From Candidatus Izemoplasma sp. (GTDB lineage Bacteria > Bacillota_I > Bacilli_A > Izemoplasmatales > Izemoplasmataceae), in contig SKJA01000163.1 of NCBI GenBank assembly GCA_007116105.1, forward strand, positions 1 to 27,477: DNA of 27,477 nt. Reading direction: 5' to 3'. Shown here in pieces: positions 1,999 to 11,122 of the stretch; within the stretch, counting starts at the first letter, position 1; each line of letters opens with the position of its first letter. A program made the position numbers and the translations under genes. The notes under the pieces are model-generated. The model ran no database searches, was not told the origin of the DNA, and was given only the letters and a program-made list of their open reading frames with translations.

Positions 1999-3552
1999 AT
2001 GAGTTATATGGATGTCAAAGCACTCTCGTTTAGCTATCAAGACAATCCCTTATTAGAAGACGCCTCGGTGCGTTTATTTGAGGGTGAACATGTGGTTTTA
2101 GTGGGGCCAAATGGAACCGGTAAAACGACCTTTTTAAAGCTGCTTTCAAGGCAGTTAAAACCCGATCAAGGCACTGTTGAGACACTGCCTAAGCTTTCAC
2201 TGGGTTACTTAGATCAATACGCGACGTTGCCTAAAGCCCACACCGTCATGAGTTATATGGCTGAGGCCTATGCCGCTTTATTTGAAAAAGAAGCACAAAT
2301 GGAAGAACTTTACGTCCAAGCTGCGAACGCAGAAGAGACGGTTCAAATGAAACTGCTTAACCGTGCCGCAACGCTGGGGGAAGAGCTTCTCGCCACCAAT
2401 TTTTACGCTTTCAAAAGCAACATTCTTAAGTTTTTACAGGGGCTTGGTATGGATGAGAGCACCTTACAGCTTCCCCTCGAGAAGTGTTCGGGTGGGATGC
2501 GCGCGAAAGTGATGCTCGCCAAACTTTTGTTAGAAGAACACGACGTTTTATTGTTGGATGAGCCCACCAACTTCTTGGATGCTGAGCATGTCGCATGGTT
2601 GAGTAAGTTTCTACAAAGCTACAGCAAAACGTTCGTAGTGATTTCCCATGATCAAGCCTTTTTAGCCGAAATCGCGACGGTGGTTTGGGCGCTTGAGCGA
2701 CGCCAAATTGAACGTTACAAAGGATCGTTTGAGACGTATTTAGCGACCGCTCAGCTCCGTCAAGAACAACACCAAAAAGCGTTTGTGACACAACAAAAGT
2801 TCATCAAAAAAACGGAAGCTTTCATTGCCAAAAACATTGCCCGTGCGACCACCACGAAGCGGGCTCAGTCCAGACGTAAAATGTTGGCTAAAACGCAACG
2901 CATTGCGCCCCCTTTAAAGACTCGAACGTATGTCTTTGCCTTTCCTTTTAGTACCCCCACAGGACGTGATGTGTTAAAGGTCAAACATTTAGAAATCGGC
3001 TATCACGAGCCATTGGTTGAACCGCTAGATTTTATTCTTCGCAAAGGAGAAAAAGTGGTCATCACTGGTGAGAATGGGATTGGAAAAACCACCCTTATCA
3101 AGACCCTAACCCAGCAGTTAAGTCCCTTACAAGGCTCCTATGAGTGGATTGACACGGCTCAAGTCTCCTATTTTGCTCAAGACAGTGATTTAGACGATCG
3201 TTTCACGCCTTTTCAAACCATTCATGAAGCTTATCCTCAGTTTGATCGTCGCCAAGTCTTTACCCTGTTAGCCCAGCACGGCTTAGATGCTGATTTGGCG
3301 TTACGTCCTTTAAAGACGCTTTCAGGTGGTGAGAAAACCAAGGTGCGTTTAGCGTTACTAAAACATCAAAAAAGTAATGTGTTGATCATGGACGAACCAA
3401 CCAATCACTTAGATCAAGCGGCGAAAGAAGCACTTCTAGATGCCTTGATTGAGTATCCAGGGACACTCTTGTTGGTCTCACATGAACGCCGGTTTTACGA
3501 AGCTGTTTGTGAGAGTGAAATCAGTCTATATGAAGCACAAAATGAGCGTTAA
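1999..3552 (+). CDS. ABC-F family ATPase (ribosome-associated, YfmM/YkpA-like)
   Basis: Two NBDs and no TM segments: GPNGTGKT and GENGIGKT Walker A, CSGGM and LSGGE signatures, two DEPTN Walker B, inter-domain linker FIAKNIARATTTKRAQSR. Start placed at ATG 1999 (GGTGA SD at 1989-1993) rather than GTG 1990. Confidence 0.9.
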   Translation: MSYMDVKALSFSYQDNPLLEDASVRLFEGEHVVLVGPNGTGKTTFLKLLSRQLKPDQGTVETLPKLSLGYLDQYATLPKAHTVMSYMAEAYAALFEKEAQMEELYVQAANAEETVQMKLLNRAATLGEELLATNFYAFKSNILKFLQGLGMDESTLQLPLEKCSGGMRAKVMLAKLLLEEHDVLLLDEPTNFLDAEHVAWLSKFLQSYSKTFVVISHDQAFLAEIATVVWALERRQIERYKGSFETYLATAQLRQEQHQKAFVTQQKFIKKTEAFIAKNIARATTTKRAQSRRKMLAKTQRIAPPLKTRTYVFAFPFSTPTGRDVLKVKHLEIGYHEPLVEPLDFILRKGEKVVITGENGIGKTTLIKTLTQQLSPLQGSYEWIDTAQVSYFAQDSDLDDRFTPFQTIHEAYPQFDRRQVFTLLAQHGLDADLALRPLKTLSGGEKTKVRLALLKHQKSNVLIMDEPTNHLDQAAKEALLDALIEYPGTLLLVSHERRFYEAVCESEISLYEAQNER

Positions 3553-3622
3553 AAACATAAAAAAATAAAGCGCGAAAGACCCTCCACAACGGAAGGTTTG
3601 ATATGCTAGAAGAGGTGATGGT

Positions 3623-4096
3623 ATGGAAGAAGCATTTTTGTGGTACATTCTCATGTTTTCCGCCTACATGATTTTCACATTGAACACAACGTACACATTC
3701 ATAGCCTTAAGGAACCGATTTTCCTGGTTGTTGGACGCTCGCTTAGCCGATCGCTTTTGGACACTGTTGAACTGGTTGGTTTACACGAGCATGGCCTTAA
3801 CAGGGGTTGTCCTTGTTGTGTGGCTCATCATGCTTATCTTAGTGCCCTTTGAAGCGGTAGCTTTCGGCATTTCTTTGGCAGTTTCAACTGTCTTAGGCGT
3901 GGGATTTTATGCCTCTGCCAAACAGTTAAAGACACGACTTTTTGTTCGTTTAAACCTACCTGAAGAACAGAAAAAATTCAATCAAACGTTGATTGCACCG
4001 AAACTCAGAGGTTTGGTGTTGACGTATGTTTTCATGAGTGCTGCAATCACCTACGGGCTGTTACATTTTTGGTTCACCAATCAAATCTTGCCTTGA
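3623..4096 (+). CDS. Hypothetical membrane protein (~4 TM), family not recognised
   Basis: 157-aa ORF with GAGGTG SD and four hydrophobic stretches. Confidence 0.75.
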   Translation: MEEAFLWYILMFSAYMIFTLNTTYTFIALRNRFSWLLDARLADRFWTLLNWLVYTSMALTGVVLVVWLIMLILVPFEAVAFGISLAVSTVLGVGFYASAKQLKTRLFVRLNLPEEQKKFNQTLIAPKLRGLVLTYVFMSAAITYGLLHFWFTNQILP

Positions 4097-4141
4097 TTGT
4101 CAAAAAAGTTACTTTTCCAACGGCTTATTGCGAGTACATTA

Positions 4142-4150
4142 TGATATAAT
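4142..4150 (+). promoter_or_regulatory. Extended -10 promoter (TGnTATAAT) of the nqr/rnf-like operon
   Basis: TGATATAAT ~67 nt upstream of ATG 4218. Confidence 0.6.
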
Positions 4151-4163
4151 CTAAGTATTAAAT

Positions 4164-4193
4164 AAGCATTTTTGCGATGAGCAAGATGCTTTT
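4164..4193 (+). other. Stem-loop in the nqr 5' leader (or terminator of the upstream gene)
   Basis: AAGCATTTTTGC-gatga-GCAAGATGCTT (11 pairs with one G-U and one bulge) followed by TTCAATTT. Confidence 0.5.
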
Positions 4194-4217
4194 CAATTTA
4201 AAGAAAGTGGTGACTTC

Positions 4218-5159
4218 ATGTCAACTAAAATTCAGGCGACACCCAATGTAAAACATTTGTGGATTTTATTTGGGGCGCTGTTCGTCTTACTGCTTGGTGC
4301 AGTTTTCCGTTATGGCCCTTACATTCTCGCCATCGCAGCGGTAGCCTACGGTGTCAGCTTATCGTTTGAGGTTTTGATTGCCAAAGCGCGAAAAAAAACA
4401 CTCGATCCAAGCTGGATGATTACGCCACTCATCCTCACCATGCTCGTCCCTCCCACGGCCCCTTTGTGGATGGTTGGTGTGGGCGCAGGCTTTGGTATTT
4501 TCTTTGGTAAATTGATTTTTGGTGGCTATGGAAACAATGTGTTCAACCCAGCTGCGGTAGGCGCTTTGTTTTTAACCGTCTCCTTCCCTGTTCTTATGGC
4601 CACACGTTGGTATTCGCCAGTGAATGGTTGGTTTAACCCAGGCAGTCAAGCCTCGCTCGATGCGATCGCCTCAGCGACGCCACTCATTCAACTGAACGCA
4701 GGGACGTTTAACAGTTCTTTGGTTGATTTATTGCTTGGAGGCACCGCCGGCAGCGTCGGTGACGCGTTTCGTCTTGGCGCCATCATTTTAGGCATCGCTT
4801 TGATTGTGCTTAAAGTCATTGATTGGCGTATTCCAGTTGCCATCATCGGTAGTTTTTTCCTCTTTACGGTACTGGGAAGCTTCATCACCGATCGGGTCGC
4901 AGATCCCATCAACTCCCTTTTCGTGGGTGGGTTAATCTTTGGGGCTTTCTTTATGGCGACAGAACCCGTGACGGCTCCGAAGCTGGCTAAGAGTAAAGTG
5001 TTTTATGGGATTGGGATTGCCTTCATTGTGTTCTTGATTCGTAATTTTGGCGCTTTTCCTGAAGGTGTAATTTTTGCCATCATCATCATGAACGCTGTGG
5101 GGACATTGTTTGATGGCTGGTTTGCTAAACCTAATTTAGATAAGGAGGTGAGCGCATGA
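4218..5159 (+). CDS. nqrB: NqrB/RnfD-family integral membrane subunit (covalent FMN carrier)
   Basis: PPTAPLW, FGKLIFGGYGNNVFNPA, FMN site SATPL, FFMATEPVT, PEGV..AI..MN...LFD. At 313 aa it has RnfD-like length. Confidence 0.9.
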   Translation: MSTKIQATPNVKHLWILFGALFVLLLGAVFRYGPYILAIAAVAYGVSLSFEVLIAKARKKTLDPSWMITPLILTMLVPPTAPLWMVGVGAGFGIFFGKLIFGGYGNNVFNPAAVGALFLTVSFPVLMATRWYSPVNGWFNPGSQASLDAIASATPLIQLNAGTFNSSLVDLLLGGTAGSVGDAFRLGAIILGIALIVLKVIDWRIPVAIIGSFFLFTVLGSFITDRVADPINSLFVGGLIFGAFFMATEPVTAPKLAKSKVFYGIGIAFIVFLIRNFGAFPEGVIFAIIIMNAVGTLFDGWFAKPNLDKEVSA

Positions 5160-5764
5160 ATAAGACAAAACAAATGCTTGTCTTTGTCCTAGCGATGGGC
5201 TTAATTACCTCGTTTTTACTGGTGGGTGTCAGTTTGTTAACCCGTGAACGTATTTTAGCCAACCAACAAGCTGCGCTTCAATCCGCTATTTTACAAGCCA
5301 ATGACATTGCTTTTACGGCGGGTGAAGTCAATGAAATCTTTAATGATCGTATTGAAGTGATTGAGCTTGAAGAAGAAGGTTCAGACACGCCGCTCGTCTT
5401 TTTCCGTCATCCAGCTTCAGGAAACATCAGTTTTCAATTTGAAGGTGGCGGTGTTTGGGGTCCAATCATTGGGGTGATTACCCTTGAAGATGATTTTAAA
5501 ACCATTGTTGAAATCACGATTTTAGAACAAGAAGAGACGCCAGGACTTGGTGGCATCATCACCGAGCGAGCGTACTTAAATAATTATGTGGGAGCACATC
5601 TGTCAGAGTCCATCACCATTTCGCACGATTCTGTGCCGGGTGACCCCAATTACGTCGATGCAATCACTGGTGGAACACGCACCAGTGAACGTTTTGAAAC
5701 CATCTTAAGAACAGCTTATCAGCGCCGCGCCGATGTTTGGCGTACGTTCGCTGAGGAAGAATAG
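5156..5764 (+). CDS. nqrC: NqrC/RnfG-family FMN-binding subunit with N-terminal TM anchor
   Basis: G.GVWGPI.G, EQEETPGLGG, flavinylation-type motif VDAITGGTRTS; ATGA overlap with the nqrB stop. Confidence 0.9.
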   Translation: MNKTKQMLVFVLAMGLITSFLLVGVSLLTRERILANQQAALQSAILQANDIAFTAGEVNEIFNDRIEVIELEEEGSDTPLVFFRHPASGNISFQFEGGGVWGPIIGVITLEDDFKTIVEITILEQEETPGLGGIITERAYLNNYVGAHLSESITISHDSVPGDPNYVDAITGGTRTSERFETILRTAYQRRADVWRTFAEEE

Positions 5765-5773
5765 GAGGGCCAC

Positions 5774-6403
5774 ATGAAACTGATACGCTTACGCTATAAA
5801 AAATGGTATAACATCAGCCGTGATGGCCTCACGACGAACAATCCAATCGCGATTGCGGTGTTAGGGATTTGTTCGGCTTTAGCGGTCACGAACCGCGTTG
5901 ATAATGCCATTGCGATGGGACTTGCGGTGGTGTTCGTGGTGACCATGAGTTCATTGACGGTCTCACTGATTCGAAACTTTATCCCAAGCCGTGTCCGCAT
6001 GGTGACGTATATGGTTATTATTTCTTCGTTTGTGATCATGGTGCAACTGTTTTTAGAAGCGTTTTTCCCACTCATTGCGGCAGCCCTTGGTGCGTTCTTA
6101 GGGTTGATCATCACCAACTGTATTGTCATGGGACGAGCAGAAGCCTTTGCGGTGAAAAATCCCTTGCGCTATACCTTCTTTGATGGGATTGCCAATGGCT
6201 TAGGATACACCTATGTCCTTGTCATCGTCGCGGTGGTTCGTGAACTTCTAGCGTTTGGCACCATCCTCGATGTGCGCATCATGCCTGACACTTGGACAAA
6301 CTGGGTGGCCATGGCACTTGCACCTGGTGGTTTCTTTGTTTTAGGGCTGCTCATTTGGGCTTTAAGAGAACTCACCAACAATTTCGAAACGGTGTCAGAA
6401 TAG
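5774..6403 (+). CDS. nqrD: NqrD (RnfE homolog) membrane subunit
   Basis: NNPIAIAVLGICSALAVT (NqrD-type CSALAVT rather than RnfE CP.LAVT) and LIITNCIVMGRAEAFA; both Fe-S Cys present. Confidence 0.9.
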   Translation: MKLIRLRYKKWYNISRDGLTTNNPIAIAVLGICSALAVTNRVDNAIAMGLAVVFVVTMSSLTVSLIRNFIPSRVRMVTYMVIISSFVIMVQLFLEAFFPLIAAALGAFLGLIITNCIVMGRAEAFAVKNPLRYTFFDGIANGLGYTYVLVIVAVVRELLAFGTILDVRIMPDTWTNWVAMALAPGGFFVLGLLIWALRELTNNFETVSE

Positions 6404-6410
6404 GAGGCTT

Positions 6411-6995
6411 ATGATGGTAGATATCTTTGATCTTTTTATTACCTCGGTACTGACGCAAAACATCGCTTTAACGTTTATCTTAGGGATGTGTCCTTTAATT
6501 GCCATTTCGACCAATGTGAAAAACGCCAAGGGCATGGGGATTGCGGTCATTTTTGTGGTCACCTTAACCGGCATCATCAACTACCCGATTTACCTTCTTT
6601 TAAGGGCGACGGGGACCGAAACGCTTTCCTTGCTTGTGTTCATCACCACGATTGCTGCAACAGTGCAATTTTTAGAGCTCTTTATTGAAAAATATTTCCC
6701 CAAAATGTACAACAGTTTCGGCCTATTTTTACCTTTGATTACGGTAAACTGCGTGGTCTTAGCGGTCTCACTGTTCTTTGTGAATCGTGACTACAACTTC
6801 ATTCAAACCGCGACCTTTTCTTTCGGTGCCGGGATTGGTTGGTTTCTGGCGATTGTCCTTGTGGCGGGCATTCGTGAAAAACTCGCTCAAAACACAGGCA
6901 TTCCACGTGGCTTAGCTGGCCGTGGCATTGTCTTCATTATCTTAGGCATCTTATCGCTTGCGTTTATCGGCTTTACAGGACTTTCAATCTTTTAA
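6411..6995 (+). CDS. nqrE: NqrE (RnfA homolog) membrane subunit
   Basis: QNIALTFILGMCP, FLPLITVNC (NqrE-type TVNC), GIGWFLAIVLVAGIREKL; both Fe-S Cys present. Confidence 0.9.
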   Translation: MMVDIFDLFITSVLTQNIALTFILGMCPLIAISTNVKNAKGMGIAVIFVVTLTGIINYPIYLLLRATGTETLSLLVFITTIAATVQFLELFIEKYFPKMYNSFGLFLPLITVNCVVLAVSLFFVNRDYNFIQTATFSFGAGIGWFLAIVLVAGIREKLAQNTGIPRGLAGRGIVFIILGILSLAFIGFTGLSIF

Positions 6996-7010
6996 GAAGG
7001 ACGTGATCCC

Positions 7011-8096
7011 ATGGATTTACTCTTTATACCTATTATTCTCGTTTCGGTTTTAGTGGTGATCACTTTAATCATTGTGTGGGCTGACAATTTTTTTGGTACG
7101 GCAGGCGAGCGCACGCTTCTTGTCAACAACGAAAAAGAAATTAAAGTCACCGACAGTGACACCGTACTAAACCTACTTACGAAAGAAAAAATCTTCATTC
7201 CTTCCGCCTGTGGTGGAAAGGCAACGTGTGGCTTTTGTAAGGTCCGCGTCACAGAAGGCGGGGGCGACGTTCGCCCGACTGAAGAACCGTTTTTAGATAA
7301 AGAACAAAAAGCGAACAACGTACGTCTGTCTTGCCAAGTTAAAGTACGTGAAAACATTAAGGTTGAGATTCCGAAAAGTCTTCTAGGTGCTTTGGAGTAC
7401 AAAGCGAAAGCCATCAAAGTAGAAGACCTAACCTACGATACGAAGTTGGTGCGCTTTAAACTCATCGAACCCGATACCATGGAGTTCAAACCTGGTCAGT
7501 ATGCGCAAATCAAAGTCCCAGGCATTGAAATCATTCGTGCATACTCCATTGCTTCAGACCCGAACGATCCTCATCACATTGAGTTTATCATCCGTTTAGT
7601 GCCTGGCGGTTTAGCAACCACCTTTGTTCACAAAGCGTTACTTGCGGGTGATGACATCATCATCACAGGACCTTATGGTGATTTCTTCTTAAGAGAAGAG
7701 AGTAAGCGTGACATGGTCTGCATCGCCGGGGGATCAGGTAAAGCGCCCATTCGTTCCATTCTATACCGTCTTCAAGACATGGGGATGCCAAGAAAAGTTC
7801 GCTATTTCTTTGGTGCGAAAGCTGTACGTGACTTGTACTATACGGAAGAGATGCAAGCCATTGCTAAAGCGTTTCCGAACTTTGAGTACATTCCCGCGCT
7901 CTCACATCCGGAAGACACCGACGATTGGAAAGGTGAAACTGGTCTGATTACTGACGTCCTCGACCGCATGACAGGGGATTTAAGTGAAAGTGAAGCCTAC
8001 TTATGTGGCTCACCAGGGATGATTGATGCGTGTATTAAAGTTCTAAAAAAACACGACATAAAAGATGAAAATGTGTTATACGACAAATTTGGTTAA
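7011..8096 (+). CDS. nqrF: NqrF-like NAD(P)H:acceptor oxidoreductase (TM anchor + 2Fe-2S ferredoxin + FAD/NAD FNR domains)
   Basis: N-terminal TM helix; SACGGKATCGFC...RLSCQ; RAYSIAS; GPYGDF; IAGGSGKAPIRS; YLCGSPGM; C-terminal YDKFG. Confidence 0.88.
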   Translation: MDLLFIPIILVSVLVVITLIIVWADNFFGTAGERTLLVNNEKEIKVTDSDTVLNLLTKEKIFIPSACGGKATCGFCKVRVTEGGGDVRPTEEPFLDKEQKANNVRLSCQVKVRENIKVEIPKSLLGALEYKAKAIKVEDLTYDTKLVRFKLIEPDTMEFKPGQYAQIKVPGIEIIRAYSIASDPNDPHHIEFIIRLVPGGLATTFVHKALLAGDDIIITGPYGDFFLREESKRDMVCIAGGSGKAPIRSILYRLQDMGMPRKVRYFFGAKAVRDLYYTEEMQAIAKAFPNFEYIPALSHPEDTDDWKGETGLITDVLDRMTGDLSESEAYLCGSPGMIDACIKVLKKHDIKDENVLYDKFG

Positions 8097-8102
8097 AAAA
8101 AT

Positions 8103-8127
8103 AAGCCACCGCTTGCGGTGGCTTTTT
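8103..8127 (+). terminator. Intrinsic terminator of the nqr-like operon
   Basis: AAGCCACCGC-tt-GCGGTGGCTT plus TTT, 7 nt after the nqrF stop; preceded by an A-rich stretch. Confidence 0.88.
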
Positions 8128-8143: not shown

Positions 8144-8557
8144 ATGAAACGACTGACCATGATTTTGATGATGCTGTTTGTTTTAATCGTTTCGGGGTGT
8201 ACGCGTCCATCGTCGTTTGAACGGCGCATGGACGATCGTTGGGATGCCATTGAGACTTACATACTGACCGCCGATGGAAACCGTGAAGGGGCTCAGATTA
8301 CGCGCTTTGATTACTTATGTTATACCTTTGAGCTTGAAGGGTTTTTGCCAACGGATATCTGTATGTATTTTGTGAGTGTGACACACCCTATTGACCGAAA
8401 TCGCTTTTGGGTTGTTTCGCATCGTTTTGATGAGGATGACGATAGCTTTGCCCACGATGAACTGGTATCACAAAGCCATTTAGACGCTGAACGTCAAGTG
8501 TTTATGGATTTTCTTGAAGAAAATGACACCGTCTTTATTGCAGGAACAAGAGATTGA
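8144..8557 (+). CDS. Hypothetical lipoprotein
   Basis: GAGAGGAG SD; signal MKRLTMILMMLFVLIVSG-C with lipobox VSGC; acidic mature part with no lysine. Confidence 0.8.
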   Translation: MKRLTMILMMLFVLIVSGCTRPSSFERRMDDRWDAIETYILTADGNREGAQITRFDYLCYTFELEGFLPTDICMYFVSVTHPIDRNRFWVVSHRFDEDDDSFAHDELVSQSHLDAERQVFMDFLEENDTVFIAGTRD

Positions 8558-8574
8558 AAAATTTACATTTTCTC

Positions 8575-8603
8575 TTCACATCGTTTTCAAAGTAAGGTAT
8601 AAT
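8575..8603 (+). promoter_or_regulatory. oppA promoter P1 (sigma70-type)
   Basis: TTCACA (8575-8580), 17-bp spacer, TATAAT (8598-8603). Confidence 0.7.
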
Positions 8604-8612
8604 AGAAAAAAA

Positions 8613-8664
8613 TTCACAAGTTCCACAACTTTTTCAATCAAAATGTTCACAAATTCCACAACTT
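8613..8664 (+). repeat. 19-bp direct repeat x2 with 33-bp period; candidate operator
   Basis: TTCACAAGTTCCACAACTT (8613-8631) and TTCACAAATTCCACAACTT (8646-8664), one mismatch. Confidence 0.8.
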
Positions 8665-8674
8665 GTGGTATAGT
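8646..8674 (+). promoter_or_regulatory. oppA promoter P2 (sigma70-type with extended -10)
   Basis: TTCACA (8646-8651), 17-bp spacer, TATAGT (8669-8674) preceded by TG. Confidence 0.65.
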
Positions 8675-8680
8675 ATCTAT

Positions 8681-8771
8681 AACATCCTTATATAATAGGA
8701 TGTGCTCCTGAGAAGGAGTTTCAACGTTGGTATAAACTGCATAGGTTTTAGAGCGCTAAAAACTTATGTGG
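8681..8771 (+). other. Structured 5' leader of oppA (three consecutive hairpins); possible cis-regulatory RNA
   Basis: ACATCCT/AGGATGT (8682-8703); GCTCCT-GAGA-AGGAGT (8704-8719, GNRA loop); CATAGGTTTTAG/CTAAAAACTTATG (8740-8768). Confidence 0.55.
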
Positions 8772-8818
8772 AATATATAAAAAAACTTGTATTCAATAAA
8801 TGAGAGGAGAAACAAGTA

Positions 8819-11122
8819 ATGAAAAAATTATTATTAGCTTTATCGTTTCTTGTGCTAGTCTTTGGTCTTGCAGCTTGTGGCGAAGATACACCCCCAAGCG
8901 TACCGACTTTATCTGGCGTAGGAAATGCAACTATCACTGTTGGTCAATCATTTGACCCACTCGCGGGTGTCAGTGCCAATGACGCGACAGATGGTAGCTT
9001 AACGTCAGCGATCACTGTAACTGGAACTGTTAACACTGCAGTTGCTGGTACATATACTTTAACGTATAGTGTAACCAACAGTGCAGGGGAAACTCGTACT
9101 GCAACGCGTACGATTACAGTTCAAGCTGTACAGCCTGATCCAGACCCAGACCCAGATCCGGACCCAGATCCAGATCCAGTTGGCGACTTTGTACTCGCCC
9201 AAGGATTCTACGATTTCAAGTTCGCTCCGGTCGATGTTAAGAATGCTTTCTTTGGTGCCGCTGAACGCTGGTTGCTTCAAACAGGCGCAGGGGGAATTCC
9301 GATTTTCGCGAACTCTACCTTCAGCTTATTTAGCTCCCGTATTCAGTTACCAGTAGAAAACTTCGTACCAGTCATGGGCTTTGGTACTGGCTTTGCTACC
9401 ATGAGTGCTGATGACTCAACTGTTCGTATGGACGATGGTCGTCCAGGTAATGCAGGCGAATACACCTACCGTGGTGCATTCATCTTCTCACCTACGACTT
9501 TCAACCAATGGATCGCAGATGACTCAGTAAGTTCTGACGTAAACGTATGGTTCTTAGATTCTTTATATTACTTCGCGTTTAATGATGAGTTCACTGGATT
9601 CGATTTATTACCTTCAATGGCTGCTAGCATGCCTATCCCAATTGACAGTGAAGTCATTCTTGGTACTGTTGCTGCAAACACTTGGCGTATTGAACTCCGT
9701 GAAGATTTAGAGTGGTTCTACCACCCAAGCATTAACACTTCAGCCTTCCCAGAAGGTCATGAACGTATTACTGCTGAAGACTTCATTGGAACGTATCGTT
9801 TAGCGTTAGAAGAAGGTTGGTTCCGTGCGATTTCAGGCGGCGGCGACTTCTTAAATGCTGCACAACGTATCGTGGGTGCTCGTGAGTTCGTAGACGGCGA
9901 AGTCGAGTTCGACGAAGTTGGTTTACGTGTCATTGATGAGTTCACGATTGAATTCGAATTTGTTCCTCTAATGTCTGAATGGGACGTATCTTACTGGTTA
10001 TCAAGTATGGTTATGTCTCCAATTAACTTACACCTTCATGAAGTTGTAGGCGCAAGCTATGGTACTTCTCATACAACAATCGCTGCTCACGGCCGTATGT
10101 TTATTGATTTCTATGAGCCAGACAGCATCGTTCGTTTAAGAGAAAATCCAAACTTCCACAGCCCAAATAGAACGTTCTTCACAGGCTTAAACTTCCAAAT
10201 TTTACCAGATCCAGACTTTGCCTTTGAAACATTCTTAGCCGGTGGTCTTGACATCGGTGGCGTACCAACTGCGCGTTTTGATGAGTTCTCATCTCACCCA
10301 GAGTTACGCTTTACACCAGGTGCTACTACGTTCCGTATGAACTTGAACGCATTAAAAACACCTGAAGCTCAAGAAGCAGCATTCCCAGGTTCTGGTTTCA
10401 CTCCTGAGCCAATCATTGGTTACCAAGATTTCCGTTTAGCAATGTACTTTGCCTTAGACCGTGAAGAAATTGCAAGAGATCTTATGAGAACTGCTGAACC
10501 ACAAATGTTCCACTTCACTCCTGCTTACTTAGTAGATCCACAAGGTGGTATCTCCTTCCGTGACACTGAGTTTGGTCCACTTGTTGGTGAAGGCTTCTCA
10601 AGATCAACCTTCGGATTCAACGAAGATGCTGCACGTGCACTTTGGATGCAAGCTATTAATCAAGCTGTTGCTGATGGCTTCTACAGCCCAGGCGATGTCA
10701 TTGAAATTGAACTTGTCATTCAAGCCGCTTCACCTGCTCAAGCATTGCTTGGCGACTGGGTTGAAGCACAGTTCGAAAGACTCTTTGTGGACACTGCCCG
10801 CAACATTCGCGTTGAAATCACCGTGACTGCTGCACCGTTCCCACAAAACTACTTTAACTACATCCTTCCAGGTACATTTGACCTTGGAATGGGCGGTATT
10901 TCTGGTGGTACATTAGACGCAGCTGGCTTCTTATCACAATACCGTGCTGATAACGCTGGTGGCTTCACCCTTAACTGGGGTCTTGACACTAACGTCGCGG
11001 AAATCCCTGTAACGTATACCATTGCAGGCGAAACCTTCCACGAAATTTGGTCATTTGATGCGATTCACCGTGCATTAACTGCTGGTGTCAACGTTGTTGA
11101 TGGCCGCGAAGTAGTCGAATAA
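8819..11122 (+). CDS. oppA: OppA-like (SBP family 5) substrate-binding lipoprotein with N-terminal Ig-like (DUF5011-type) domain and Pro-Asp linker; apparently circularly permuted
   Basis: Lipobox LAAC; Ig-like PTLSGV...FDPLAGVSANDATDG...GTYTLTYSVTNSAG...ATRTITV; SBP5 motifs WRIELREDLEWF, ITAEDF, RVIDEFTIEF, RENPNF, DFRLAMYFALDREEI; first gene of a BCDF operon. Confidence 0.9.
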   Translation: MKKLLLALSFLVLVFGLAACGEDTPPSVPTLSGVGNATITVGQSFDPLAGVSANDATDGSLTSAITVTGTVNTAVAGTYTLTYSVTNSAGETRTATRTITVQAVQPDPDPDPDPDPDPDPVGDFVLAQGFYDFKFAPVDVKNAFFGAAERWLLQTGAGGIPIFANSTFSLFSSRIQLPVENFVPVMGFGTGFATMSADDSTVRMDDGRPGNAGEYTYRGAFIFSPTTFNQWIADDSVSSDVNVWFLDSLYYFAFNDEFTGFDLLPSMAASMPIPIDSEVILGTVAANTWRIELREDLEWFYHPSINTSAFPEGHERITAEDFIGTYRLALEEGWFRAISGGGDFLNAAQRIVGAREFVDGEVEFDEVGLRVIDEFTIEFEFVPLMSEWDVSYWLSSMVMSPINLHLHEVVGASYGTSHTTIAAHGRMFIDFYEPDSIVRLRENPNFHSPNRTFFTGLNFQILPDPDFAFETFLAGGLDIGGVPTARFDEFSSHPELRFTPGATTFRMNLNALKTPEAQEAAFPGSGFTPEPIIGYQDFRLAMYFALDREEIARDLMRTAEPQMFHFTPAYLVDPQGGISFRDTEFGPLVGEGFSRSTFGFNEDAARALWMQAINQAVADGFYSPGDVIEIELVIQAASPAQALLGDWVEAQFERLFVDTARNIRVEITVTAAPFPQNYFNYILPGTFDLGMGGISGGTLDAAGFLSQYRADNAGGFTLNWGLDTNVAEIPVTYTIAGETFHEIWSFDAIHRALTAGVNVVDGREVVE
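9134..9178 (+). repeat. Coding hexamer repeat CCN-GAY x7, encoding the (Pro-Asp)7-Pro linker
   Basis: cct gat cca gac cca gac cca gat ccg gac cca gat cca gat cca. Confidence 0.95.

Follow-up and report, generated by a model that had tools for sequence, protein, structure and literature searches.

An nqrBCDEF operon without an A/RnfC-type subunit in a soda-lake Candidatus Izemoplasma: its relation to Rnf and Na+-NQR and the possible routes of electron exit

Introduction

Rnf and Na+-NQR, the NADH:quinone oxidoreductase that translocates Na+, make up the two members so far known of a major family of ion pumps driven by redox reactions, NQR being also an antibiotic target. A widespread third form, in which NAD(P)H is fed into an Rnf-like core with no A/C subunit, has appeared in genome papers for over a decade with no biochemistry to accompany it. 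NqrBCDEF sets lacking NqrA have been noted for Pseudothermotoga thermarum and P. lettingae (PMC4148951), as well as for Clostridium (Schnuerera) ultunense, P. lettingae and Alkaliphilus metalliredigens, in connection with which an acceptor of lower potential than quinone was suggested (PMC5924567), and further carriers listed are 'Ca. Izimaplasma' ZiA1 and Acholeplasma palmae (PMC6256511). These published carriers also have Rnf (PMC4148951, PMC5924567, PMC6256511). Here we have analysed a cluster of this kind, located at positions 4218-8096 of a 27,477-nucleotide stretch of DNA from Candidatus Izemoplasma sp. (GenBank assembly GCA_007116105.1, contig SKJA01000163.1, positions 1 to 27,477 of the forward strand), a stretch hereafter designated the window.

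The main evolutionary study on these complexes considered Firmicutes and Thermotogae to be without nqr and proposed that NqrA arose by degeneration of RnfC, with no extant intermediates (PMC4014512). A later survey of flavinylation (Meheust et al. 2021) defined NQR by NqrF alone, so that clusters without A were counted as NQR (PMC8238504). In the literature on complexes lacking NqrA and on Rnf/Nqr hybrids we found no biochemical study. The original prediction for this locus, which was made from the letters of the DNA, had presented the cluster as an Rnf-Nqr intermediate with an electron input and no encoded output; both the A-less arrangement and the question of where its electrons leave have already been published (PMC4148951, PMC5924567, PMC6256511). 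The window cluster is thus a member of the published NqrA-less NqrBCDEF group, a layout on record for anaerobe genomes since 2014. We report here its placement within the wider family, in which the absence of the A subunit is best read as a secondary loss, and weigh the routes by which electrons might leave the complex.

Results and Discussion

Organization and conservation of the operon

Five open reading frames (ORFs) on the + strand are tightly packed between 4218 and 8096 in the order B-C-D-E-F, within a window whose GC content is about 45%. The frames are clean when translated with genetic code table 11, and a table 4 reading (TGA as tryptophan) was unneeded. Genes B and C overlap by 4 nucleotides (nt), and the three junctions that follow are gaps of 9, 7 and 15 nt. 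The features of the operon are as follows, lengths being given in amino acids (aa):

~4141-4149, + strand: extended -10-like promoter element TGATATAAT, about 70 nt 5' of the B start codon, read directly
4218-5159, + strand: B subunit, 313 aa, Pfam NQR2_RnfD_RnfE
5156-5764, + strand: C subunit, 202 aa, N-terminal membrane anchor and one FMN_bind domain
5774-6403, + strand: D subunit, 209 aa, Pfam Rnf-Nqr; Cys33, Cys116, Asp137
6411-6995, + strand: E subunit, 194 aa, Pfam Rnf-Nqr; Cys27, Cys114, Glu89
7011-8096, + strand: F subunit, 361 aa, Pfam Fer2+FAD_binding_6+NAD_binding_1
8103-8124, + strand: intrinsic terminator, whose 9-bp GC-rich stem and 4-nt loop precede a T-run

A consensus scan of the + strand near 4141-4149 gave no full -35/-10 pair, the upstream element being therefore promoter-like only. 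ORF calls and Pfam searches over the window evidence no A-type ORF 5' of B, and neither RnfC nor RnfB is encoded in the operon. The -10-like box, the tight junctions, the terminator and a gene order kept in ten of ten relatives bear out the proposal of a self-contained BCDEF operon.

The host metagenome-assembled genome (MAG; 1.08 Mb, 183 contigs, 70.7% complete), of which the window is contig C2, was compared with genomes of its order, in a set of 41 of which 26 are at least 90% complete. Seventeen of the 41, host included and drawn from two families of the order, have an F orthologue (61-95% identity). The B-C-D-E-F order is identical in all ten relatives' loci that were fetched, in which D, E and F are 60-78% and B and C 38-55% identical to those of the window. 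The F homologues that are 63-70% identical to that of the window carry the names Acholeplasmataceae, Acholeplasmatales, Izemoplasmatales and Tenericutes, in agreement with the placement among the Mollicutes made beforehand. One relative departs from this picture in its F gene: at locus L042 (9391-10476; G014:C48) an in-frame TAA divides it into two ORFs (171 and 166 aa), the gene being either a pseudogene or misassembled.

Cofactor sites and relation of the subunits to Nqr and Rnf models

As judged from sequence, every predicted cofactor ligand is intact. At the N-terminus of F, a hydrophobic stretch is interpreted as a membrane helix, and further along are a 2Fe-2S ferredoxin domain with Cys67/73/76/108, the flavin adenine dinucleotide (FAD) motif RAYS at 176 and the NAD(P)H motif GGSGKAP at 240; these motifs and the three Pfam domains of F agree with the NAD(P)H/FAD/2Fe-2S input module that had been assigned to it. 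The motifs quoted earlier for D and E are all present, CSALAVT at D33 and LITVNC at E109, together with the four membrane cysteines (D33, D116, E27 and E114). The flavinylation motif of B, DAIASATPL, places Thr154 in line with the threonine that bears flavin mononucleotide (FMN) in the solved RnfD and NqrB chains, whereas that of C is DAITGGT, with Thr174 and a glycine at -1 that also occurs in relatives L038 and L042. At positions invariant in NQR, B retains E51, K98, T154, E249 (Asp in NQR), R275 and D299, D retains C33, C116 and D137, and E retains C27, C114 and E89. The core features of the superfamily are all present: the four cysteines of D/E, the flavinylation threonines of B and C, the acidic residues, and a flavin transferase (ApbE) in the genome, the search for which had been proposed in the original prediction and which located its gene on contig C79.

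Distinct features result from the analysis of other regions of B and F. The N-terminal extension of NqrB, its first 90-120 residues or so, is missing from B: the latter aligns with Vibrio NqrB only from about position 46 on, and the match to the NqrB model begins at about position 120. The Gly-Gly pair of NqrB (Vibrio G140/G141), which we take to be linked to the quinone and korormicin site, corresponds to S47/L48. At several positions the whole Acholeplasmatales clade differs from NQR, from the clusters that keep an A-type gene and from the other A-less clade (both described below); for example, the Arg at Vibrio position 209 is Ala116 in the window B. F, in turn, lacks about 45 residues that make up two inserts in the FAD domain of canonical NqrF.

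None of the five subunits passes its NCBIfam Nqr equivalog cut-off (score/cut-off: B 159/350, C 67/144, D 230/245, E 191/248, F 264/295). The best NCBIfam matches of D, E and F are nevertheless the nqrD, nqrE and nqrF models, all below cut-off, whereas that of B is rnfD. Among the Rnf subfamily models, rnfD (210/207) and the RsxE-type (190/184) are just passed, and rnfE (180/213), rnfA (173/229) and rnfG (41/102) are not. By phmmer, B scores 134 bits with RnfD vs 113 bits with NqrB, and its identity amounts to 39-40% with B of the A-type clusters, 32-36% with the relatives' RnfD and 32% with Vibrio NqrB. The description of B as short and RnfD-like is thus upheld, both by its RnfD length and by the rnfD cut-off.

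Wider family and phylogeny

A pattern scan over one genome per species gave at least 600 matches, of which the best 80 constitute the named loci used here, and their ORFs were classed with local profiles. Three architectures were distinguished:

Canonical NqrABCDEF, found in various phyla: B of about 400 aa and F of about 407 aa
A-less BCDEF, with B of 300-360 aa and F of 360-383 aa: Mycoplasmatota, Bacillota (Anaerococcus, Schnuerera, Tissierellaceae), Cloacimonadota, Spirochaetota, Riflebacteria, Deltaproteobacteria-labelled MAGs, Sedimentisphaerales
BCDEF preceded by an A-type gene, with B (347-371 aa) and F (about 360 aa) both short: Pirellulales, Omnitrophica, other Planctomycetota

The Deltaproteobacteria-labelled MAGs of the A-less group are two named 'uncultured delta proteobacterium' and one Desulfonatronovibrio. 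In the third architecture, A-type genes with Fe-S motifs are found at these loci:

L062, 370-1869: Pirellulales
L063, 4856-6352: Omnitrophica
L096, 4756-6252: Planctomycetota
L098, 4871-6244: Planctomycetota
L116, 1367-2803: Planctomycetota

The encoded A-type proteins match either an RnfC_N or an NqrA domain, and always together with a 4Fe-4S dicluster domain. Their alignment evidences that both CxxCxxCxxxCP motifs are kept, that an insert of about 40 residues is common with NqrA and not with RnfC, and that the GGAGFP motif is degenerate. These Fe-S-bearing A-type subunits are put forward as candidate extant intermediates between RnfC and NqrA, and they would make the proposed degeneration of RnfC to NqrA (PMC4014512) testable on extant proteins. 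No description of clusters combining an Fe-S-bearing A-type subunit with short B and F was found in the literature searched.

The placement of the window was investigated with a concatenated maximum-likelihood tree of B, D and E (70 taxa, 701 columns, LG+C20, UFBoot/SH-aLRT supports), rooted on seven Rnf sets. The outgroup is small, being composed of Acholeplasmatales and E. coli Rnf, the loci are a sample, and the additional tree of F alone was built by a quick method. In the B+D+E tree the F-bearing clade is supported at 100/100 and divides into two branches. In branch I (100/99), L062 and L063, in which an A-type gene is present, are sister to a 15-row A-less clade that contains the window (100/100). 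Branch II (98/92) comprises a second A-less clade of 17 rows (100/100) and a group at 100/96, which in turn joins the A-type clusters L087, L096 and L098 with canonical NQR (100/100). The tree of F alone recovers both the monophyly of NQR and the window's clade; in it, the second A-less clade is grouped, and the window's clade paired with L063, with weak support only (SH-aLRT 56 and 33, respectively). These trees are consistent with a single recruitment of F.

The A-less clusters thus form two separate clades, and the window subunits lie outside the canonical NQR crown, not nested in it. The simplest history would be that an Fe-S-bearing A-type subunit was present in the ancestor and was lost at least twice. 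Since the sister clusters keep such a subunit, the loss of A would be secondary, and the A-less state of the window is best read in this way and not as the primitive Rnf-Nqr intermediate that had been envisaged. The published Tenericutes examples most likely belong to the window's clade, while those outside the Tenericutes probably fall in the second one, where a Schnuerera sp. cluster (L066) is indeed found.

The two A-less clades differ in another respect. Directly after F, ten loci of the second clade encode a sixth protein of about 150 aa (for example L074 7357-7821 and L054 9403-9861), which a profile search finds at 14 loci overall; it has no Pfam family and displays an invariant Gly-Phe-x-Gly as well as invariant Pro, His and Arg positions. 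By profile search it was found neither in the window nor in the six-frame ORF set of the host assembly, nor in any of the 41 genomes of the order. An Acholeplasmatales clade without this small sixth protein is new here, and the window places the Acholeplasmatales/Izemoplasmatales version of the complex in a separate, early-branching clade.

The sixth protein bears on the possibility, which we consider quite doubtful, that electrons leave through a dedicated partner encoded elsewhere, for example a carrier of rubredoxin or ferredoxin type, or an RnfC-like protein that has two [4Fe-4S] motifs and no FMN. The near-constant presence of the ~150-aa protein after F in the other A-less clade would be in line with such a partner, as would one of these loci, which adjoins three rubrerythrins and a ferritin. 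The RnfC-like candidate lies on contig C79 of the host genome (locus L008: 598-3141, - strand, and 3236-4141, + strand), where a reduced Rnf-like cluster divergent from apbE encodes this protein (368 aa; two [4Fe-4S] motifs, no GGAGFP FMN motif), a very divergent RnfD-like protein (327 aa; PF03116, 27.9 bits), a NusG_II-domain protein (146 aa) and a DUF1146 protein. At least seven genomes of the order, each of them with F, have weaker RnfC-like matches comparable to that of C79. However, the sixth protein is absent from the searched genomes of the order, and the C79 protein has its own RnfD-like partner and was not detected in eight other F carriers. It was also rejected as a relocated A subunit, having just the Fer4 region in common with the A-type subunits and not their ~40-residue NqrA-type insert. 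Moreover, none of the ten relatives' loci reveals a conserved neighbour of BCDEF, the occasional ones (an M3 oligopeptidase, an EamA transporter and an ABC-F protein) being uninformative.

NqrA, quinone and Rnf genes in the host and its order

A split but conventional Na+-NQR, with nqrA located elsewhere and a respiratory quinone as acceptor, would agree with the fact that D, E and F score best on Nqr models, and a MAG just 71% complete could miss a gene. Nevertheless, NqrA is above cut-off in none of the 41 genomes, the nqrA model has no match in the host genome, and all weak NqrA matches are RnfC. The all-below-cut-off Nqr scores and the position outside the canonical NQR clade (100/100) point in the same direction. 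Concerning quinones, a UbiA-family prenyltransferase (302 aa; contig C147, locus L046 1423-2331, - strand) belongs to a gene family present in 10 of the 41 genomes, mostly F carriers, and it was rejected as MenA (51 bits vs a cut-off of 264). A link to a quinol oxidase was also discarded, as cytochrome bd occurs in three relatives only, none with F. No genome with F among the 41 thus has cytochrome bd, and no bona fide MenA was found. Taken together, these results leave a split conventional NQR close to refuted, and we regard it as extremely improbable. Neither of the two outcomes that the original prediction had named against itself, an nqrA elsewhere accompanied by a quinone pathway or a nesting of the subunits inside canonical NQR, was found.

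A distinct scenario results for Rnf. Contig C168 of the host carries, in order, the C-terminus of RnfG, RnfE (251 aa), RnfA (206 aa) and a short RnfB-like protein (101 aa), and ends before rnfD and rnfC. A true RnfC is present in a genome of the same genus (G001), and RnfC is above cut-off in 35 of the 41 genomes of the order; the canonical rnf operons of relatives read RnfC-D-G-E-A-short B (loci L048-L052). The statement that NqrA/RnfC and RnfB are lacking therefore holds for the operon, and not for the genome as regards Rnf. The short canonical RnfB (C168 580-882, - strand, and loci L048-L052) deserves a separate mention: at about 100 aa, with a membrane anchor, one Cys-rich FeS domain and no polyferredoxin part, it raises the question of how ferredoxin docks.

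The presence of Rnf relates to the option of a borrowed RnfC. B would dock onto the RnfC of the canonical rnf operon, and electrons from NAD(P)H at F would pass to NAD(P)+ at RnfC, resulting in an ion-coupled transhydrogenase or in an alternative, NADH-fed input to the Rnf output module. The RnfD length of B and the fact that rnfD is the only subfamily cut-off it passes argue for this option, as do the true RnfC in 35 of 41 relatives, that of the same genus included, and in nine of ten other A-less carriers tested, the host's own rnf fragment on C168, and the Rnf of the published carriers (PMC4148951, PMC5924567, PMC6256511). Yet, because Rnf is near-universal in the order regardless of F, this co-occurrence carries little information. 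In addition, B is just 32-36% identical to the relatives' RnfD, and an NADH-to-NAD+ loop would be futile unless F were NADPH-specific. In the sister clusters, the GGAGFP FMN/NADH motif is no longer kept by the A-type subunit, which argues that the ancestral exit was not NAD+. Finally, BCDEF occurs in the Spirochaetia genome G043, where neither a true RnfC nor another RnfA/E pair is present, which weakens the option; G043 belongs, however, to the other A-less clade and its genome is possibly incomplete. Genome G006 was rejected as a further RnfC-free carrier, its rnf operon being cut at a contig edge, with an RnfD fragment starting at base 3 of C29. On these grounds we consider the sharing of RnfC rather unlikely.

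Surface flavoproteins and a possible outward export

The relatives contain additional flavoproteins of interest. The rnf operons of L048 (3142-4902; G035) and L051 (8176-10128; G020) code for RnfG-like proteins that are 586-650 aa long and bear three FMN_bind domains, and several small stand-alone FMN_bind proteins (126-172 aa) are found elsewhere in the genomes of relatives; this is an elaborate set of surface flavoproteins in wall-less bacteria. The corresponding hypothesis is that electrons exit at the surface FMN of C towards extracellular flavinylated proteins or external acceptors, B serving mainly in ion coupling. In a wall-less organism C would be exposed at the cell surface, the small FMN_bind and three-FMN_bind proteins could act on the receiving side, and single-path NQR/RNF-like export systems have been described in the flavinylation survey (PMC8238504). 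On the other hand, B keeps its flavinylation threonine and its conserved acidic residues in all carriers, and these would be unneeded for one-way export, no gene for an extracellular reductase or FMN_bind protein is conserved beside the operon, and C is the sole FMN_bind match in the host assembly, which is an incomplete genome. Outward export appears rather improbable to us.

A proposed autonomous five-subunit pump

The reading that we favour, tentatively and with somewhat less than even confidence, is that of an autonomous NAD(P)H-driven Na+ pump in which electrons leave from B without an A subunit. By homology with the solved NQR and Rnf structures, electrons from NAD(P)H would pass through FAD and the 2Fe-2S cluster of F to an intramembrane 2Fe-2S cluster held by D and E, and from there to the covalent FMN on C at the outer face, the covalent FMN on B and a riboflavin in B. 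This flow would be coupled to Na+ export via the conserved acidic residues of B, D and E. The exit would be at B, directly to a small diffusible or membrane-soluble oxidant, for example an exogenous quinone-like compound or O2, in parallel with NQR, where B and not NqrA reduces the quinone.

Several lines of evidence favour this autonomous pump. According to a 2025 review, NqrA has no cofactor or assignable direct function, and the riboflavin in NqrB passes electrons to quinone directly (PMC12174285); the earlier premise that the absence of NqrA leaves the complex without output is thus weak. Furthermore, the A-type gene would have been lost at least twice while the five other genes remained intact across several phyla, without decay, which argues that A is dispensable. 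The lack of a partner gene conserved in the order and the Spirochaetia genome with BCDEF and no Rnf add to this. On the same side count the intact ligands of all five cofactors, the apbE gene, the lack of any NqrA above cut-off and of the sixth protein in the 41 genomes, the RNA contigs over B, C, E and F, and the soda-lake origin. Acholeplasma species have a known membrane-bound NADH oxidase, which would fit an autonomous complex, and these cultivable relatives are where the acceptor could be found.

A number of points weigh against this interpretation. Lacking the N-terminal extension and the Gly-Gly pair of NqrB, B looks more like an RnfD to which RnfC docks; canonical Rnf is present in nearly all BCDEF carriers, and a shared RnfC is possible for this clade. 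The proposed Na+ coupling is deduced from conserved residues only, and the gene survey described above provides no respiratory quinone system. In respect to expression, coverage in an RNA library (see below) is by itself no proof of transcription.

Combining these elements with the phylogeny, the NqrF-bearing family may be seen as a living series of Rnf-to-NQR intermediates, with A-type subunits that have no FMN/NADH motif and yet keep both [4Fe-4S] clusters, and with two independent losses of A. The window's clade would then represent a minimal five-subunit, Na+-pumping NAD(P)H oxidoreductase without A/RnfC or sixth protein, using a non-quinone acceptor, and hence a distinct functional class beside Rnf and NQR. 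We put this combined proposal forward as possible and distinctly provisional.

Probable expression and habitat

The window DNA was found in a soda-lake metagenome, an origin that fits a primary Na+ pump, which would be physiologically sensible there. In an alkali-sediment metatranscriptome from the same study, 41% of the sampled words are present. Contigs of the RNA library at least 99% alike extend over parts of B, C, E and F as far as about 8014, and none lies at 3217-4735 or at 8208-8858. These results suggest in-situ transcription of the operon, ending at the terminator, in the soda-lake sediment.

Further downstream, at 8859-9500, begins the gene of a 767-aa SBP_bac_5/Ig-like lipoprotein (OppA-like), at the start of which the RNA word depth reaches about 3250, vs 3-10 in the pump operon. 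Within this gene, around 9137-9179, a variable Pro/Asp/Glu-rich repeat is noted, over which the contigs disagree.

Two ORFs flanking the operon were considered as extra subunits and rejected. That of 157 aa (3623-4096) has no family match and is not kept beside the operon in relatives; the one of 137 aa (8144-8557) likewise has no family match, is not kept in relatives and is unrelated to the sixth protein.

Comparison with known systems

With the published A-less clusters the window shares the order B-C-D-E-F, the absence of nqrA, a short B and the presence of a canonical Rnf alongside. It differs from the second A-less clade in that the latter usually has the ~150-aa gene after F.

In respect to the Na+-NQR (NqrABCDEF) of Vibrio cholerae (PDB 7xk3, 8a1t), the window complex has the same NqrF-type input, with N-terminal anchor and 2Fe-2S, FAD and NADH sites, the same cluster cysteines in D/E, the two threonines for covalent FMN and the acidic residues of B, D and E. 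Unlike Na+-NQR, it comes without NqrA, its B, some 100 residues shorter at the N-terminal end, carries Ser-Leu where NqrB has Gly-Gly, its F is without the ~45 insert residues and its C is about 55 residues shorter; its subunits fall below the equivalog cut-offs and outside the canonical clade, and no quinone pathway was found.

The comparison with Rnf (RnfCDGEAB of Clostridium tetanomorphum 7zc6, Acetobacterium woodii 9eri and Azotobacter vinelandii 8ahx, and the Rsx of E. coli) reveals a common four-subunit membrane core and a B of RnfD length that is slightly closer to RnfD than to NqrB. In contrast, the window operon encodes no RnfC or RnfB; the place of RnfB is taken by F, an NAD(P)H reductase of the FNR type, and the same genome encodes a separate canonical Rnf elsewhere.

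The A-type clusters (L062, L063, L096, L098 and L116) resemble the window in their short B and short F, L062 and L063 being its sister group, and differ in keeping an A-type gene with two CxxCxxCxxxCP motifs, of which the window has none. Lastly, the NQR/RNF-like flavinylation systems (PMC8238504) also combine partial Rnf/NQR machinery with ApbE; however, whereas those consist of an RnfD-NAD_binding fusion with a single transmembrane path, the window encodes B and F as separate proteins and a full D/E/C path.

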